Shown: positions 2,681-58,503, numbered from the stretch's first letter. The stretch: 64,000 nt of DNA from Candidatus Eremiobacteria bacterium (GCA_963737065.1 CAVTRC010000002.1:288001-352000); one strand, 5' to 3'. Notes: a model not told the origin generated them from the sequence alone. Made by a program: numbers and translations.

Positions 2681-3094
2681 TTACACGCGGTGCGCGGGAG
2701 AATTTCGCCCGGTGCGCTGTTGAGAAGCGCTATGCGAGCCTAGGACCGCGAGCTGCCGGCGTTGCGCTTCGACGACACTGTGCTGGTACGCGAGCTCTTT
2801 CTTGAGTTCTTGATTGACTTGCACTTCCTCGGCATACGCCTTTTGCTCTTGATGGTAGGCGGCCCATGCGTCGTTGTTCTCTTGCGAAAGCGCGGCCTGG
2901 CGGCGATCGTAGTGTGCGTATTTTTCATGAATTTGCCGATCGTGTTGGACGATCAAATATGCAGCGGCCGCACCGCCGAGCAGAATCAAATTTCGCGTGG
3001 TCGCCGCGCCGTCGGCGTGCACCGGCACGGCGGGAATCGCGAGTGCGAGCGTTCCCGTCAGCGCGAGCGACCCAAGTGCTTGCTTGATTTTCAT
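2681..3094 (-). CDS. Secreted hypothetical protein with coiled-coil region
   Basis: Start MKIKQALG after a GGAGGG RBS; signal peptide ending VHA-D; Q/E/A-rich helical C-terminus. Confidence 0.7.
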   Translation of the reverse strand: MKIKQALGSLALTGTLALAIPAVPVHADGAATTRNLILLGGAAAAYLIVQHDRQIHEKYAHYDRRQAALSQENNDAWAAYHQEQKAYAEEVQVNQELKKELAYQHSVVEAQRRQLAVLGSHSASQQRTGRNSPAHRV

Positions 3095-13927: not shown

Positions 13928-14749
13928 TTAGCTGGCCGTTGACTGCGAGAGCGATGCGAGGTTGATGAGTTCGATGCGCGCCGGACGCGCGAAGAGAAAC
14001 CCTTGCATAACATTGCAGCCGAGTTCCTGAAGAACCGCAACCTGTTCCGCGCGCTCGACGCCTTCGGCGACGATCTCCATGTTGCAGCTCGACGCGACGG
14101 TCATAATCGCGGAGACAACCGCTTTATCGACCTTTCCACCGGGTAGATCTTTCACGAAGCAGCGGTCGATCTTTAGCACATCGGCGGGAAACGACTTTAT
14201 GCGCCCGAGCGTGCTGTAACCCGTACCGAAATCGTCGATGACGATCTTTACGCCTTCGCAACGCAACGCGGCCACCATTGCCGTGATCGCGTCGACATCG
14301 CGCATGATGCAGGTCTCGGTGATTTCGAGCCAGAGCGACGTGGGCGGGAGTCCGCTCAATGCAAGTGCGCGCTGGATGCTCTCGACAAATGAGCCGCTGT
14401 CAAACTGACGGACTGAGACGTTGATCGATACGGGAACGTTGTAACCGGCGTCATGCCATCGCCGCGCTTCACGGCAAGCTTCTTCGAGAATGAGCAACCC
14501 GATTGCATCGATCAATCCGGTCTCTTCCGCAACATCGATGAATGTTTCGGGCAGCATCAAGCCGCGATTCGGATCGCGCCATCGTACCAGCGCTTCCACC
14601 GCAAACGTTTCTCCTCGCGCCGTATCGACAATCGGTTGATAGTGCAGTTCGAATCGCCGCCGCGCGACCGCGCGTCGAAGCTCCGACTCGAGCGTAGCCG
14701 TCCCGGTACGCGGAAAATCGGTTCGCGCTAACATGGACCAGATGCTCAT
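13928..14749 (-). CDS. Stand-alone EAL-domain c-di-GMP phosphodiesterase
   Basis: YQPIVD, EALVRW, LEITE, DDFGTGYS, LKIDR and AEGVE all intact. Confidence 0.95.
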   Translation of the reverse strand: MSIWSMLARTDFPRTGTATLESELRRAVARRRFELHYQPIVDTARGETFAVEALVRWRDPNRGLMLPETFIDVAEETGLIDAIGLLILEEACREARRWHDAGYNVPVSINVSVRQFDSGSFVESIQRALALSGLPPTSLWLEITETCIMRDVDAITAMVAALRCEGVKIVIDDFGTGYSTLGRIKSFPADVLKIDRCFVKDLPGGKVDKAVVSAIMTVASSCNMEIVAEGVERAEQVAVLQELGCNVMQGFLFARPARIELINLASLSQSTAS

Positions 14750-16098
14750 GCCGATCTACCGAGCCAGCTACGATGAAATGAGGTCGCGCGTCTGCCTGCG
14801 TCGGCTACATGCCGTTCGTCCTTGGTGATTGACGCGATCGCGCGTGCAGTCTTTGCCGCGCGCCACTGAAAGCCGAGGCGATCCCAGGTGGACAAGGCGC
14901 TGTTTAAGTAGTCGAGTCCGCGTTCGACGTCACCGTTGGCGGCCGCAACCGCGCCGAAAGCGTCATATTCATATGCCCGCCAGCGATGAAGCGTTCCGCT
15001 TGCAATGAGCATCGGGTCGATCGGCTTACGAATCGCCTTGTAGCGCGCTACCATCGCTTCCGCGCGCTTGGGATTGAACGATGCCGCAAGCTCCGCGCCC
15101 CAGAGTAACGCATACCGGTCTTCGCCTTGCGTCGCGTTCCAATCGACAAGCGCGCACAGTTGTTCGGCCTCATCGAAACGTTCGCGTGCCGACAGCACTT
15201 CACCGATCGCGCCGAAGAGAAACGAACGATCCAAAATCGCTTCGATGCGCCGCGGTATCGTGGGCGCGTGGACTTCAGCCTTACGCAAATCTCGGAACGC
15301 CGCGATTTCGTTTCCTTCGAGCGCTTCGTTCCATCCGAGAGCGCGATAGACGTTATACGCCCAGCCCGGCATTTCGCCGTTCCAGGGCAACGTAGACGCG
15401 CGCGTGCGAACGAAGTTCGCCACATCGGGCATGTGCATCTCGGGGATAAGCGAAGCAAGGTTGTTCAAGAGTGAGGCTTCTGCCCATATCTCAGGTTGCG
15501 TCGCAGCGGCAAGCGCAGCCAAACCTTGTCGCAGGTAAGCAATTTGCGCTTCGTGACGCTCGTTCAGTCCTTCGATGAGGGACAGCAGCTCATACGTGAA
15601 CGCAACGGATGCTGCGGCCGGATGGGCGCCCACACTGCTATATTCGCAACCTTCGACTTCCGCGAGCGATTCCCGCGCAATGCGTTGCGCTTCCGCGACG
15701 TCCTTGCTTCGCCACGCTGAAAGCGCGACGTAGTAGTTGAGTTCGACCCGCAGCGCGGGCGCTGCGATGCCGCAAAGCGATTCGCGAGCCTCGACCCACG
15801 CTGAATCGGCACCTGTCTCATCACCTTGGCGGTCGAGAATCGTGCCGAGCAACGTGCAATAGAGCGCGCGGTCAAGACCGTTGCGCACCGTTTGTCCGGC
15901 TTGCCGGATGGCGGCTTCGGCTTCTCGTAGACGGCGCAACCGAAGAAGCGCGCGCGCGCGCAGCACGTCCGCCTCAAAGCCGGAATGGAAACGAAGAGCA
16001 CTGATGCAGTCTGCGTTACGGGCAGACGCATAGTGATCGACCGCTATATGAAACGGCTGTTGCTTCGGGACGAACGTGACGACGCGTGCTGGTTGCAG
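14746..16098 (-). CDS. TPR-like all-helical protein, probable CTG start
   Basis: Frame of ORF 14746-15966 stays open upstream to CTG at 16098, 5 nt after GGGAGG; Ala/Leu-rich helical repeats; ATGA overlap with the EAL gene. Confidence 0.75.
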   Translation of the reverse strand: MQPARVVTFVPKQQPFHIAVDHYASARNADCISALRFHSGFEADVLRARALLRLRRLREAEAAIRQAGQTVRNGLDRALYCTLLGTILDRQGDETGADSAWVEARESLCGIAAPALRVELNYYVALSAWRSKDVAEAQRIARESLAEVEGCEYSSVGAHPAAASVAFTYELLSLIEGLNERHEAQIAYLRQGLAALAAATQPEIWAEASLLNNLASLIPEMHMPDVANFVRTRASTLPWNGEMPGWAYNVYRALGWNEALEGNEIAAFRDLRKAEVHAPTIPRRIEAILDRSFLFGAIGEVLSARERFDEAEQLCALVDWNATQGEDRYALLWGAELAASFNPKRAEAMVARYKAIRKPIDPMLIASGTLHRWRAYEYDAFGAVAAANGDVERGLDYLNSALSTWDRLGFQWRAAKTARAIASITKDERHVADAGRRATSFHRSWLGRSA

Positions 16099-16196
16099 GA
16101 CGGCCTCCCGAAAAGCGAAGCTTGACGAAGACTATATAAATGCTCGCTTACTGGGTATCGGCAGACCGCACGTCAGTCTTGAGGGGTAGCGGCTAT

Positions 16197-16268
16197 TTAC
16201 TTGCCGCCCGGCCCCCCGCAGTTCGAAGCTGCAGCAACGACAGCGAGAAGAGCAATAAGCGTTAGCAT
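16197..16268 (-). CDS. Small exported peptide precursor MLTLIALLAVVAAASNCGGPGGK (23 aa)
   Basis: AGGAGA RBS, ATG at 16268, TAA at 16197-16199; hydrophobic core then Cys-GGPGGK. Confidence 0.65.
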   Translation of the reverse strand: MLTLIALLAVVAAASNCGGPGGK

Positions 16269-16376
16269 GGCCGTCTCCTAATGTTGGCTTGTAGAGAGTT
16301 GGACCACGCCGACGGCTTACGCGATCGGGTGGCACCCCGTACCCGCCTATTCCTCGGCCGCTTTACGATCCCTTTG

Positions 16377-17354
16377 CTATCCCGATACGAATCTTTGACA
16401 ATATGGAACGCGGGCCGCCGGTCGCCTCGCGGAGCGCATCAATCGGGCGCGGTTGCGCGGTGCGCGCAAGGCCTCTAGCTCTTCGAGCGTCCGCGGCCAA
16501 TCGGCGCCGAGCAATCTCGAGAGCGCGCGATCCGCGAGGAGTTTTCCGCCCGTTTGGCATCGCGCGCAATAGTTCGTTTCGTTGTCGGCGTAACGAATGC
16601 GTTGCACCGGGTCGCCGCAACGCGGGCATGGCTTGCCGTAGCGGCCGTGTACTGCCATGTCTTTGCGAAATGCCGTGACTTTTTCCGGAAAATGCTCGCG
16701 CGCTTCGGAAGCAAGACGATCGATCCAAAGCTCGAGAACCTCTCGCGTAGCATCGTAAAGTCGTTGCCATTCGTCATCCGTAAGTTTTTGCGTCATCGCA
16801 ATTGGCGAAAGCTTTGCATGGTGCAGGATTTCGTCCGAGTACGCGTTGCCGATGCCATCGATGATGCGCGGGTCCGTAAGCGTGCGTTTGAGCGTGTGGT
16901 TTTCGCGCGAAAGCGCGTGGCGAAACGTTGCCGGATCCGAAGAAAAGACGTCGATGCCTCCCGGGTCGATCGAGCGCAACGCATCTCGACTTTTGAAGAC
17001 GTACAACGCAGCGCGATGCTTCGAACCAGCTTCAGTCAAGACGAGCGAACCGCTCGGAAAGTCGAGTGCTGCAAGGGTATTGCGCCCGGTGAGCGCTGCG
17101 CCGCGCTCACGCCAATGCAGTCTTCCGGCGATCATGAGATGGAGCGCGAGCCAGAGGTCCTCGTCGAATCCAATCGCAATGCGTTTGCCGATGCGCCGAA
17201 GTTCGCGAACGCGGTGATCGTCGAGCGCAGAAACCGGCGGATCGGCGGTCCGTAGCAAAAACGGATTGCCGATGCGAACGCGTTCGAGCCGTTCGCCGAC
17301 GATGCGTCGATCGAGCGCTGTGATGTATGCCGTGATATCCGGGAGCTCGGGCAT
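16377..17354 (-). CDS. Fpg/Nei family DNA glycosylase
   Basis: N-terminal PELPD, HLMIAG, H2TH GIGNAYSDE, zinc finger CPRC...CARCQ. Confidence 0.95.
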   Translation of the reverse strand: MPELPDITAYITALDRRIVGERLERVRIGNPFLLRTADPPVSALDDHRVRELRRIGKRIAIGFDEDLWLALHLMIAGRLHWRERGAALTGRNTLAALDFPSGSLVLTEAGSKHRAALYVFKSRDALRSIDPGGIDVFSSDPATFRHALSRENHTLKRTLTDPRIIDGIGNAYSDEILHHAKLSPIAMTQKLTDDEWQRLYDATREVLELWIDRLASEAREHFPEKVTAFRKDMAVHGRYGKPCPRCGDPVQRIRYADNETNYCARCQTGGKLLADRALSRLLGADWPRTLEELEALRAPRNRARLMRSARRPAARVPYCQRFVSG

Positions 17355-17357
17355 CGC

Positions 17358-17915
17358 TCACCGCTCGAGTTTGATATCGAGAATCGCCGCGGCTTCCGCA
17401 AGCGCCGGGTGATCGATCGTCAGCGGTTCGATTCCGCTCTCCCTCACGATCGTGACATCCCACAGACCGGCACTCTTCCAACGCGCATCGTTGAACGACC
17501 ACCATGCAATCCCGCTAAACTCGCCGCGGTCGAAAATTCGCAACGACCAATTTTGCGATTGCGAATAGTCGCGAGTGATGACGTTCGACGGCCGCAAGCC
17601 GAATTCGATCAGCCGATGCGGATCGTCTAGATCGACGATTGCCGCGTCATGGGCAACGTCATACCACGCGAGCGATCGCACGAGATCGGGATACCGGCGC
17701 AACGGAAGCATATCGGCCGTCCACTTCAACCGGTGCGCACCGCGATAGAAGACTTCGGCGCACGCACCTGCAGGCGAATCTCCGACGTAGAGGACGCGGT
17801 ACTGTTGCGGATTGTCGATGCGTCCGCCGCCTTGTTGCGCCGGAATGTAAAGAACGCCGCCCGGTTCGTCCGGTGCGGCGTTCGAATCGTGGAGAAGAAC
17901 GCGATAGAGCCTCAC
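17358..17915 (-). CDS. RES-domain toxin
   Basis: R (GGRIDNP), E (CAEVF) and S (GIAWWS) motifs; GTGA overlap with the antitoxin gene. Confidence 0.85.
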   Translation of the reverse strand: MRLYRVLLHDSNAAPDEPGGVLYIPAQQGGGRIDNPQQYRVLYVGDSPAGACAEVFYRGAHRLKWTADMLPLRRYPDLVRSLAWYDVAHDAAIVDLDDPHRLIEFGLRPSNVITRDYSQSQNWSLRIFDRGEFSGIAWWSFNDARWKSAGLWDVTIVRESGIEPLTIDHPALAEAAAILDIKLER

Positions 17916-18346
17916 GCGAACGCGCCGGCAGCAATCGCATCGATTGCGCCGATGACGCGAGCCGGCCCGGAGATCGTCAATACATTGATCGGGATGCTAT
18001 TGCCGAGCAGCGCCTCGGGCGACGCAAGCCAAGGCCCAACGTCTTCGGGATTCATCACGTGCAATGCGCGATCGATGATGTACTCAACGTCGCTGACGCG
18101 TCGGGCGAGCGCCGGGCTCACCCGCTCGTGGCCCTTGATGCAGCGATTGAGCTGCGACTTATCGACGTCGAGAATATCTGCTGCGGCGGAGAGCCCCAGC
18201 GCAGTAATCACGCGCTCGAGTTTCGGCTCGACCGGAAAAGCCTCGTCGGCATTCGGCTTGAGTTCGATCACCCGGTCGGAGCGCACGTTCCAGCGCATCA
18301 GCGCGGCGCGGCGACGCGAAGCCTTCTTGCTGCGGGTAATGGCCAT
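17912..18346 (-). CDS. Xre/MbcA/ParS-type antitoxin
   Basis: HTH (AADILDVDKSQLNR) and C-terminal WL..P..LLG..PI...GAFA; GGAGGT RBS. Confidence 0.85.
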   Translation of the reverse strand: MAITRSKKASRRRAALMRWNVRSDRVIELKPNADEAFPVEPKLERVITALGLSAAADILDVDKSQLNRCIKGHERVSPALARRVSDVEYIIDRALHVMNPEDVGPWLASPEALLGNSIPINVLTISGPARVIGAIDAIAAGAFA

Positions 18347-18365
18347 TGGTTTACCTCCCGCCTGC

Positions 18366-18417
18366 ATTATACTCCACGGAAAGCGTGGAGCCAAGTCGCG
18401 TCCACGCAAACCGTGGA
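18366..18417 (-). promoter_or_regulatory. TA operon promoter with two palindromic operators
   Basis: TTGGCT-17-TATAAT on the minus strand; TCCACG-N5-CGTGGA palindromes at 18372-18390 and 18401-18417. Confidence 0.8.
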
Positions 18418-18425
18418 GAAGGGCG

Positions 18426-18800
18426 TCAGAGGCCGCCGTAGGGACCCGTCGAGGAACTGTAGCTCCCGCTGCCGCGCGCATCTTTGACCTCTTGGTACCA
18501 TAGCGCGATGATCAGCAGCGTCGGAACCCACTGGCCCACAAGAAGTGACTCGTGTTTCCGGCCCATGAAGTTTAACGCGAGCGATATGCCGATCGAAAGT
18601 CCCGCCGCGCCGAGCAGTAAGCTGCGCTTGGTGGAATTCGTCGGTTCCTGGGCGTCATTGCGTTCGGTAGCTTCGCTGATCGCCGCGGCAGCGCGCCCGG
18701 CGCTCGTGTCCGTTGCATCGCGGATGCTGCCCGTAATTGATTCCGCTGCGGAACCCGCAGCGCGTTCCATCGATGAATCGGTGCTGTCGTATGTGCTCAT
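18426..18800 (-). CDS. Small membrane protein
   Basis: Polar N-terminus then two hydrophobic segments (GLSIGISLAL; VGQWVPTLLIIALW). Confidence 0.7.
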   Translation of the reverse strand: MSTYDSTDSSMERAAGSAAESITGSIRDATDTSAGRAAAAISEATERNDAQEPTNSTKRSLLLGAAGLSIGISLALNFMGRKHESLLVGQWVPTLLIIALWYQEVKDARGSGSYSSSTGPYGGL

Positions 18801-56438: not shown

Positions 56439-58313
56439 TCACAACGAGGATGGACTGACGAAGGTGTAGCCCAAGGCTTGGATTCCGTTGATCGTCTGTT
56501 GGAGCGGCGCCCATCCGTATGTCGGATCGTAGAAGAAGCTTGCGAAGCCATCGCGCACTGCAAGATTGAGTTGCGCTTCGTTGATGATATTCGCGGGTAA
56601 CCGGATCGGATTATTATTGAGTGAGACCGGCTCGTAATCGCCCAGATTCTCAGGCACGACCTTCGTACCGTAGACGTCTTGAACGACGTACGGAAAGAAC
56701 TGCCCGATATATGAGAGATGGTTGACCGGTTGTCCGGAGATGACGCCGTTGAAGTAGATCGATCGCTCGTACCGTTCCGGATAGACCGTCGCGATCGCGC
56801 GATAGTCGATGTCGGTCGCAAAATAATGCGGGGTCACCCACAACGAGGGTTTCGGAAAACCAACCGTTTGGAACGCCGCCGCCGCGCTGCGCACGCGGTT
56901 TAGCGTCCACGCGGTCGAGTCTTCCGCCACGGGTCCATCCCAGATCACGTTGTTCGTCGTACCGTCGACATGCACCCTAAAGAACTCGGCGTCGTCGCCG
57001 CTAGCGCCGGTATAGGGATTCTTCACGTTGCTGTACTGATGCGTCCAGCCCTCGTCGATCATCGTACCGCCGTGCGTCGTCATATATCTGAGAACCGCGT
57101 CGAAGCTGAACGCCGCAAAGAGCGGAATCGTCCGCGGAACGCCGTTGTTGTACGCGCCGAGCGGGTCCTTATACAACGGAATGACGTTGAAGCCGTACGG
57201 GATGTGCATATTGTAGAGCTTCTGCGCGATCGACAACAGTTGCGAGGCATTATCCGTCGCGTTGAGGTCCTCCAGACGAACCATCGCGCGGTGACGCGGC
57301 GTCGTCGCCGGCGCGAGCGCATCGAAAAGCATATCCTCAAATGCAATGACGCGATCCGTTTCGTTCACGAACGAGAACGGGATCTCGCCGACGTACGTTA
57401 GGTTGCCCGAACGAAGCGCCCATGGGAACATCGTCGACGGCGACGTGCTCGTATCGACCGCAGTTGCGAGCGTCGTGACGGCGGGATACCCGCCGCCTAA
57501 AATCAGCGGGTGCAAAACGCCGCCGTCATCGGCTGTCGGAACCGAGCGCGTCAGCGTCTGACCGTTGTAGACGACGTTTGTCACGTCTCCGACGCTTCCG
57601 TTCGGAGCGAAAAACGAATTTGTCGGATCCCAACCGTACTCGGTATCGAAGTTCAACGTCCCCATCTCATCGGCCATATACCAAATGTTGTCGCCGATCC
57701 AAATGACGGGCGTTGCCGCGCCCGCAACGTCACTGTAAAACGCAGCCGGGATTCCCGTCGCGTCGGCATAGTACGTCGATCCGACGTAAATCGCCGCGCT
57801 GTACTGTCCCATCTGTCCGCTCGTGTACGATCCAATCGGCTCCGTCGTCACGTTTCCGAAGTGGCCGGCTAGGTTTGCGATCGCCATGCCGTACAGCTCG
57901 CCGAGAAAGGCGAATGGTCCGGTATTGTCATAGAGCACGAGCGCCGTTGCGCTTCCTAACGCCGCTGCACGGGTTTGCCCGCGATCTGCAGTTGAGATTG
58001 CGCGGACACGAAACGCGGGTCCCGGCTGTGAAGCTGGCACGGGCTTCGAAGGTTTTTGGCGATGCGCGCGTCCCACATCGGCCGCGCGCTGTGCCGCTGC
58101 CCAGCCGCCGAGCGACGTTGAACGCAGTCCGTCATGAATAGACGATGCGACATGCCGCGGTAATGACCGCGTCAGCCCGCCTGCAAGGGGTGCTCCGCTT
58201 GTCGCCGGCGTCGTTCCCGACGTCGAGCCGCCGCCGCAATTCGCTAATATGACGATCGTTCCGCTCAAAACGCAGAGCCGAACGACGCATGTGAATGAGC
58301 GCAAATGACTCAT
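56439..58313 (-). CDS. DUF2334 polysaccharide-deacetylase-like lipoprotein
   Basis: Lipobox-like LANC; VRLEDL, EGWTHQY, DDAEF, TPHY, ASFFY. Confidence 0.78.
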   Translation of the reverse strand: MSHLRSFTCVVRLCVLSGTIVILANCGGGSTSGTTPATSGAPLAGGLTRSLPRHVASSIHDGLRSTSLGGWAAAQRAADVGRAHRQKPSKPVPASQPGPAFRVRAISTADRGQTRAAALGSATALVLYDNTGPFAFLGELYGMAIANLAGHFGNVTTEPIGSYTSGQMGQYSAAIYVGSTYYADATGIPAAFYSDVAGAATPVIWIGDNIWYMADEMGTLNFDTEYGWDPTNSFFAPNGSVGDVTNVVYNGQTLTRSVPTADDGGVLHPLILGGGYPAVTTLATAVDTSTSPSTMFPWALRSGNLTYVGEIPFSFVNETDRVIAFEDMLFDALAPATTPRHRAMVRLEDLNATDNASQLLSIAQKLYNMHIPYGFNVIPLYKDPLGAYNNGVPRTIPLFAAFSFDAVLRYMTTHGGTMIDEGWTHQYSNVKNPYTGASGDDAEFFRVHVDGTTNNVIWDGPVAEDSTAWTLNRVRSAAAAFQTVGFPKPSLWVTPHYFATDIDYRAIATVYPERYERSIYFNGVISGQPVNHLSYIGQFFPYVVQDVYGTKVVPENLGDYEPVSLNNNPIRLPANIINEAQLNLAVRDGFASFFYDPTYGWAPLQQTINGIQALGYTFVSPSSL

Positions 58314-58503
58314 TTTGTCCCACCATTGGTCGCGTGTAGGCTTTGATTCTCCCACCAACGACCACACAAGAACATCACCCAACAATCGGTGAGTCGTTAT
58401 AGCCGTATACGCGTGACGAAAGTCCCACCCCAAAAACGGGTTTCAAGTTGGGGGTAAACGGTGGCACACTAAAGCTACAAACGATACAGCGGGACGAAAT
58501 ACT

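Follow-up and report, generated by a model that had tools for sequence, protein, structure and literature searches.

The 64-kb window analysed here, i.e., the whole stretch of 64,000 nt from a Candidatus Eremiobacteria genome, contains a gene of only 23 codons that is real and under coding selection, and it is firmly established that this small gene is the first cistron of a conserved operon, in which it is followed by the genes for a tetratricopeptide repeat (TPR) protein and a stand-alone EAL enzyme. Our leading reading of its product is a small peptide that acts as a signal or partner and is encoded beside its own receptor. A preliminary description of the locus, made from its sequence, had pointed to a genuine small gene with a product that starts like a signal peptide and ends in a short Gly-rich tail, and our analyses support these features. 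What that reading of the gene lacked was its connection with the TPR-EAL operon, and this connection is the main result of the present work. Standard gene callers are blind to genes of 23 codons, and for one of them both selection and a link to a sensor protein can here be demonstrated.

The small open reading frame (sORF) lies on the minus strand at 16197..16268 (23 codons plus TAA), with its ATG at 16268-16266 and its TAA at 16199-16197, and its 23-aa product is MLTLIALLAVVAAASNCGGPGGK. Residues 1-16 of the peptide are apolar and uncharged, and are followed by Cys17 and the tail Gly-Gly-Pro-Gly-Gly-Lys, the whole peptide having one charged residue. The Shine-Dalgarno (SD) sequence AGGAGA (16274..16279, minus strand) is separated from the ATG by a 5-nt spacer and lies inside a 17-nt block, extending from the ribosome-binding site to the second codon, that shows no change across four species. 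The AGGAGA, the ATG and the clean stop of the preliminary description were thus all found, on the minus strand. The source genome (G000) has a single copy of the sORF, and a simple scan of 15800-16600 returned neither promoter-like nor terminator-like sites. There was no exact match to the peptide or to its three orthologues in approximately 15 billion predicted proteins, and the earlier label “unannotated” therefore holds, while a 31-aa counterpart from another genus is present there once, as a “hypothetical protein”. The sORF tail does contain a run of six G residues (TGC GGG GGG CCG), at which a frame error had been suspected, and a run of five would indeed give the alternative tail that was written out for it. 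The suspicion can be laid aside, since the three orthologues have no G run at this place (GGA GGC, GGA GGT and GGC TCG, respectively) and keep the same frame, still ending in Gly-Gly-Lys-stop, from which it follows that the frame in the window is not an indel artefact. A separate idea, in which a frameshift has cut short a longer lipoprotein gene and the sORF is what remains of its 5' end, was rejected as well, as the stop (TAA or TAG) is at the same place in all four species and no conserved extension was found in any of the three downstream frames.

The evidence for selection comes from the genus itself. A DNA search of 40 relatives produced long matches, with 72-75% identity, in three of the six other congeneric genomes (G001, G003 and G005), and besides these two 40-nt matches, both inside the downstream coding region. 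The sORF is kept in all three of the long-match genomes, and two further contigs, L074 and L078, have the G005 form of it, so that conservation of the ORF in relatives, on which the preliminary description had made its reading depend, was borne out; a search for related loci gave four loci in genome contigs and one locus in metagenome contigs. Pairwise dN/dS values for the sORF are 0.07-0.22, at 0.52-0.68 synonymous differences per synonymous site, which is near saturation, and over the 22 comparable codons the variable alignment columns number 8, 3 and 19 at codon positions 1, 2 and 3, respectively. The sORF of G003 has one additional codon in its tail, in frame, the substitutions within the apolar run are conservative, and residue 20 varies freely (Pro, Ile or Ala). 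Short apolar ORFs are common in the source genome, where 1900 satisfy a loose criterion, and a chance ORF in a GC-rich intergenic region was accordingly considered as an origin of the sORF, but the dN/dS values, the in-frame indel and the invariant ribosome-binding site and start together refute it, and its probability can be regarded as negligible.

Within the genus, the sORF and the TPR gene occur together or not at all. A TPR orthologue (at least 74% identity) is found in exactly the four congeneric genomes that have the sORF, and the three congeneric genomes without a sORF match, which are 90-96% complete, have only paralogues of the TPR gene with 24-27% identity, i.e., both genes are present in four of four genomes and both are missing in three of three. 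The gene upstream of the sORF, in contrast, is not constant: G003, G005 and L078 have a DEAD-box helicase gene there, whereas that of the source genome and of G001 is Fpg-like. In each of these arrangements the sORF remains paired with the TPR gene.

In the window, the sORF sits in a 410-nt gap separating two same-strand genes, of which the upstream one encodes an Fpg/Nei-type glycosylase (16377-17354, minus strand; PF01149, PF06831, PF06827). ORF lists call the downstream one from a GTG at 15966, a version for which there was no Pfam match, and they likely mis-start it. The TPR frame upstream of that GTG (15967-16098, 44 codons) is conserved as protein and contains no ATG, GTG or TTG, and at its upstream end there is an invariant CTG (16098-16096) with a Shine-Dalgarno sequence, GGGAGG (16104..16109, minus strand), 5 nt ahead of it. 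At the aligned position G022 has an ATG, and the matches of TPR homologues in other genera start at residues 2-5 of the extended query protein. Based on the upstream conservation, the GGGAGG-CTG pair, the ATG in G022 and the match starts in other genera, the CTG is the likely start, and we read the TPR protein as 450 aa from 16098 (14746..16098, minus strand). Its stop overlaps by 4 nt (ATGA) the start of the EAL gene (13928..14749, minus strand), which encodes a 273-aa c-di-GMP phosphodiesterase (PF00563, E 2.6e-72) that by eye has the motifs Glu-Ala-Leu-x-Arg, Asp-Asp-Phe-Gly-Thr-Gly and Glu-Gly-Val-Glu, which we take to be the catalytic ones. Eight loci have an EAL gene immediately 3' of the TPR orthologue. 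Two of them are in genomes of genus g54, of which one is flagged as unpublished, and the other six are those of the four species and of L074 and L078. In the other genera read, no EAL gene directly follows. The EAL protein is without a sensor domain of its own, and its regulation by a partner is therefore plausible.

A candidate for that partner is the TPR protein, for which an AlphaFold2 model (19 sequences) gave an all-helical solenoid (pLDDT 91.5, pTM 0.89). A Foldseek search of the PDB with this model had at least 500 matches at E<=10 and 97 at E<=0.001, and among the matches listed all were TPR proteins (IFT-A, Ski3, TTC7B, OGT, LGN), with generic eukaryotic solenoids the best of them. 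The Rap receptor of phage phi3T was at rank 26 (E 2.7e-4, TMq 0.32), and the search does not separate RRNPP receptors from other TPR proteins. Other searches were of the same tenor: a profile search of PDB sequences identified the TPRs of kinesin light chain (E 2.7e-5), the ESM Atlas returned generic TPR clusters, and Pfam TPR_2 and TPR_12 were found in 10 and 7, respectively, of 19 family members. No Pfam HTH, RRNPP family or other known effector domain was found in the 450-aa protein, and by eye no signal peptide was seen in it.

The explanation we prefer, and to which we would give slightly less than an even chance, is that the sORF peptide is the cognate partner of this TPR sensor in a system that has an RRNPP-like logic and, as we propose, c-di-GMP as its output. 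TPR grooves bind short peptides, and c-di-GMP is the main switch between the motile and biofilm ways of life. The sORF would be translated as the first cistron of the sORF-TPR-EAL module, and its product would serve as the cognate peptide of the adjoining cytoplasmic TPR protein. Residues 1-16, being uncharged and apolar, would carry the peptide into or across the membrane, and since 23 aa are too few to reach the exit of the ribosome tunnel before synthesis is complete, targeting of any kind has to follow translation. Following its presumed export and processing, the groove of the TPR protein would recognise the short tail Cys-Gly-Gly-Pro-Gly-Gly-Lys, or Ser-Asn plus the same tail, and peptide occupancy would then govern the EAL phosphodiesterase, whose translation is coupled to that of the TPR protein, and through it c-di-GMP. 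If the peptide and the TPR protein are indeed partners, a diffusible signal that is re-imported has somewhat better than an even chance of being the form the partnership takes, and a membrane-bound tether or partner somewhat worse than an even one. Several findings count against the pairing of peptide and receptor, i.e., that generic TPR solenoids are the best structure matches, that the 450-aa protein has no HTH or effector domain, that an EAL gene adjoins the TPR gene in two genera only, that 15 of 33 close homologue loci have no sORF by the uniform rule given below, and that none of the 19 short upstream peptides of this family has a Lys or Arg in its first seven residues, unlike Sec signals; most SHPs also differ from these short peptides in having N-terminal Lys/Arg. 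A complex prediction was made with the G022 TPR protein and its own 31-aa sORF product, a pair that was used because the window peptide falls under the 30-residue guidance, and its score of 0.12 (mark 0.32) is evidence neither way.

A different role for the sORF is suggested by the DNA that follows it. The 98-nt spacer from the sORF stop to the TPR start (16099..16196, minus strand) is conserved in the four species and has invariant blocks, which are unusual for non-coding DNA at approximately 75% overall identity. One such block of 16 nt, at 16168-16153, is predicted by RNAalifold to pair with the GGGAGG region, i.e., the Shine-Dalgarno sequence of the TPR gene, and a hairpin is also predicted across the sORF stop codon. 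The sORF could then be a cis-acting leader ORF, whose translation remodels the spacer, in which the invariant block would sequester the TPR Shine-Dalgarno sequence, and so sets the translation of the TPR and EAL genes, with no role in trans for the peptide. The strong SD of the sORF would suit such a function, as would a distance to the next gene that is similar across genera (approximately 50-160 nt). Control by leader peptides or upstream ORFs has precedents in monitors of the secM-secA and mifM-yidC2 type, and the sORF resembles such systems in having an apolar product and in lying upstream of a gene whose SD can enter a predicted helix. Unlike those monitors, however, its 23 residues are too few to leave the ribosome and be pulled, and unlike arrest leaders it has no conserved arrest motif (residue 20 being the variable one). 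The alternative RNA structures of an attenuator would be expected to show covariation. Compensatory change was seen in two of the 57 predicted pairs, with a covariation term of -0.31 kcal/mol, although the key helix is invariant on both sides and covariation is therefore uninformative there; the single-sequence fold z-score of the spacer region is -0.78. In Rfam, three weak matches were obtained at E<=10 (best E 0.65), and none of them was on the sORF or the spacer. The anti-SD block is also approximately 30 nt past the stop codon, which is outside the footprint of a terminating ribosome, the strong selection on the amino-acid sequence goes beyond what mere presence of an ORF would require, and the long repeat-bearing lipoprotein genes that occupy the same place in paralogues (described below) are not leader peptides. 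With invariant blocks and a predicted SD pairing, yet so few compensatory pairs and such a z-score, we consider a cis-regulatory role to be a rival or an additional layer, and a leader ORF as the full explanation to be unlikely.

The preliminary description had proposed that signal peptidase II, acting at Ala-Ser-Asn/Cys-Gly-Gly, would give a 7-residue lipopeptide or, alternatively, that signal peptidase I would release a soluble or thiol-modified peptide, and the first of these amounts to a rival of the peptide-receptor pairing. As a minimal lipoprotein, the sORF product would be processed by Lgt and LspA to leave a diacylglyceryl-Cys heptapeptide in the membrane, which would act alone as an envelope component or a lipopeptide signal. 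Several observations would accommodate this. The apolar run followed by Cys-Gly-Gly resembles the N-termini of bacterial lipoproteins, Cys17 is invariant in the four species with both Cys codons in use (TGC in three, TGT in one), and the source genome encodes Lgt (PF01790, 193 bits) and LspA (PF01252, 122 bits). Moreover, two peptides of other loci, L085 (at the orthologous position) and L096, match the lipobox pattern, and the proteins encoded upstream of six TPR-LuxR paralogues are all canonical lipoproteins, which, with Lgt and LspA present, makes a lipid-anchored ancestry possible. The site itself, however, is weak as a lipobox. The PROSITE-type rule for lipoproteins asks for a small residue (Ala, Gly or Ser) directly ahead of the Cys, at -1, for an apolar stretch over positions -2 to -4, and for a Lys or Arg in the first seven residues, and in our regex, written from that pattern, the window peptide and its three orthologues failed on the Asn at -1. 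The missing basic N-region, already a caveat in the preliminary description, was found as stated, there being no Lys or Arg in the first seven residues of the window peptide. How unusual the Asn is can be gauged from 107 lipoprotein-like N-termini in the source genome that have Gly/Ser-rich sequence after them, in which -1 is Ala in 51, Gly in 14, Ser in 10 and Asn in one. That one belongs to a 664-aa ORF of the window (56439-58433, minus strand), whose lipoprotein-like N-terminus is from an internal start; it is the lipoprotein that had been cited for its likeness to the sORF product, and an Asn before Cys-Gly-Gly-Gly after an apolar stretch was confirmed in it, so the window does have one other protein with Asn at -1.

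The Cys also has a restricted distribution. Its conservation in relatives, which had been made a condition of the lipopeptide reading, holds in four of four species of the genus. Beyond the genus, where homology of the peptides rests on position and architecture, four peptides have Leu in the Cys17 column of the peptide alignment and further ones have Thr, Gly or Ser, and in genus g17 one species has a lipobox-like Cys where its sister species has Leu. A mature part of seven residues would be shorter than that of any lipoprotein known to us, and a lipopeptide that acts alone leaves unexplained the strict linkage of the sORF to a cytoplasmic TPR protein. Lipidation of the window peptide is thus possible but not favoured, and the stand-alone minimal lipoprotein is an improbable explanation; of the two earlier readings, it is the release of a soluble peptide that better fits the picture obtained from the family.

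That picture begins with the TPR protein, whose family is found in Eremiobacterota/Vulcanimicrobiota, in MAGs of the Baltobacteraceae type. It is a multi-copy family, with matches at E<=1e-5 in 103 of 121 genomes of the order, at 1-8 matches per genome, and with matches at E<=1e-36 in 40 of 348 family genomes. Close homologues can be aligned from the N-terminus, at approximately 29-48% identity, and many of them have a same-strand small gene approximately 50-160 nt upstream. The products of these small genes are mostly 20-58 aa long, start with Met-Leu or Met-Ala followed by 12-20 apolar residues, have 0-4 charged residues and in most cases end in a Gly-Gly pair plus a few small residues; several have 2-4 His and some have internal tandem repeats.

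Two rules were used to put numbers on this recurrence. The uniform rule, an N-terminally apolar ORF of 18-81 aa on the same strand that ends 30-200 nt upstream, was positive at 18 of 33 N-terminally alignable homologue loci (12 genera), with no such ORF at the other 15, and at 6 of 25 distant paralogues, against a background of 89 in 1425 (6.2%) upstream of long ORFs in the source genome. Beyond the 18 there are His-rich sORFs at L011, L014, L021 and L086 that fall under the hydropathy cut-off. The stricter, post-hoc rule (an SD, an apolar start and Gly-Gly within the last seven residues) was positive at 9 of 31 loci versus 0.013 expected, although both rules were set after the peptides had been seen and related genomes are not independent, and the ratios therefore overstate significance. 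Applied across the whole of the source genome, the stricter rule had eight hits, among which only the window sORF resembles the family. A 6-row peptide profile run against 301 family genomes found no member beyond its training rows at E<=0.001, its weak matches being inside long ORFs, and homology of the peptides across genera thus rests on position and architecture and not on sequence statistics. Two loci of the family have unusual upstream regions. At L016 (G112; 2947-3090, minus strand) there are two tandem sORFs of 24 and 20 aa with the same architecture, and between them and the TPR homologue lies a GC-rich hairpin of 11 bp. At L019 (G091) a unit of 27 nt (9 residues) is repeated head to tail at least 13 times in one open frame, approximately 100-600 nt upstream of the TPR homologue, and this frame may encode a long propeptide built of repeats or may be nothing more than repetitive DNA.

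The recurrence of the pairing in 12 genera, and the co-occurrence and co-loss of sORF and TPR gene within the genus, also bear on whether the peptide could be a membrane-resident micro-protein that is unrelated to the TPR protein and in its operon by chance, e.g., one that regulates a membrane complex or forms a small part of it, or a membrane peptide similar to type I toxins. The size and composition of the peptide, with a 16-residue apolar run and only one charged residue, are like those of known bacterial small membrane proteins. Such a run is short for a bilayer span, though, and the single copy in the genome and the failure of the simple scan to find an antisense promoter-like or terminator-like site also argue against a micro-protein of this kind, which together with the recurrent pairing makes it quite unlikely.

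The distant paralogues of the TPR protein show another version of the same layout. They are 506-533 aa long and combine the same TPR domain with a C-terminal GerE/LuxR HTH (8 of 10 scanned), a domain make-up from which we read them as sensor-regulators. By the rule that requires an SD, an apolar sORF was found upstream in one of 20 distant paralogues, and with the HTH-bearing paralogue of L020 there is an sORF of 50 aa that is similar to the window peptide at its beginning as well as at its end. In six loci (L024, L025, L027, L033, L036 and L037) the gene just upstream of the TPR-LuxR paralogue is longer, and its product of 70-130 aa opens with a canonical lipoprotein signal, in which basic residues in the N-region are followed by an apolar stretch and then by Cys20, itself preceded by Leu-Gly-Gly or Leu-Gly-Ser. 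All six proteins pass both the lipobox and the basic N-region rules. They continue with 2-6 tandem copies of a 10-15-residue unit that has a Gly-Gly-Gly-Pro core. In a seventh locus, L098, there is a similar repeat protein without the Cys. The repeat lipoproteins have 25 relatives in 5.8 billion sequences, of which those with a source name are “hypothetical”, and no Pfam family was found in the repeat lipoproteins or these relatives. Judged by these architectures, the Gly-rich part appears to be presented by several means that can replace each other, a lipid anchor being one of them.

Cassettes that consist of a peptide and its TPR receptor are well known from Bacillota, where the RRNPP(A) systems include Rap-Phr, NprR-NprX, PlcR-PapR, PrgX-PrgQ, Rgg-SHP, ComR-ComS and AimR-AimP. 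As in those systems, there are several paralogous cassettes per genome, to judge from the 1-8 TPR family matches, and the sORF peptide is like the SHP/PrgQ class in being short and apolar and in not being an obvious Sec substrate. The criteria of the RRNPP signature include a propeptide of 10-100 aa, a receptor of 250-500 aa, TPRs and adjacency (PMC10075063), and four of the five signature criteria apply to the sORF-TPR pair, with its 23-aa peptide, 450-aa receptor, TPRs and adjacency, the small propeptide gene directly adjoining that of a cytoplasmic TPR receptor here as there, on the same strand and with the 98-nt spacer between them. A further criterion is a secreted propeptide (with a Sec signal, or with SHP/PrgQ-like export by PptAB), and in this respect the sORF peptide shows an apolar N-terminus without basic residues. 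RRNPPA systems are described in which one propeptide has several copies of the peptide or in which there is more than one propeptide gene (PMC9765709), and the tandem sORFs at one locus and the repeat copies in the upstream proteins of paralogues are similar to some of these. The differences from RRNPP are of equal interest. The phylum is Eremiobacterota/Vulcanimicrobiota and not Bacillota, and no sequence similarity or preferential structural similarity of the TPR protein to RRNPP receptors was found, nor does it have their N-terminal HTH or Rap-type domain. The output is different too: in the paralogues it is an HTH of the LuxR type at the C-terminus, and here it is an EAL enzyme encoded by a gene of its own. 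The peptides of the sORF type are without a basic N-terminus while the propeptides of paralogues are canonical lipoproteins.

A wider proposal, which is tentative and in our estimation rather doubtful as a whole, is that Eremiobacterota would have a family-wide, undescribed system of peptide-receptor communication, analogous to RRNPP but of independent make-up, which would be the first outside Bacillota and the first wired to c-di-GMP. It would have exported propeptides encoded 50-160 nt upstream of cytoplasmic TPR sensors, and these propeptides would be either bare and apolar with a Gly-rich tail or anchored as lipoproteins with 2-6 tandem Gly-rich units. The sensors would have a C-terminal LuxR HTH or, as here, be coupled to an EAL enzyme, with a signal of 7-9 residues acting on c-di-GMP turnover. 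In the open-access literature searched, no paper on a peptide-TPR pairing in Eremiobacterota was found. Should the TPR protein prove to have the peptide as its ligand, peptide-TPR signalling would extend beyond Bacillota and into an uncultured phylum of soil and peat, a peptide signal would be tied directly to c-di-GMP, and the paralogous cassettes (1-8 per genome, some with repeat-bearing lipoprotein precursors) would be natural variants for tests of specificity.

One further pair of genes in this part of the window deserves mention. On the minus strand at 17358-18481, beyond the glycosylase gene, a 185-aa RES-domain ORF (PF08808, E 6e-16) has a 4-nt overlap with an upstream 189-aa ORF for which there was no Pfam match, and the pair has the appearance of a RES toxin and its cognate antitoxin.
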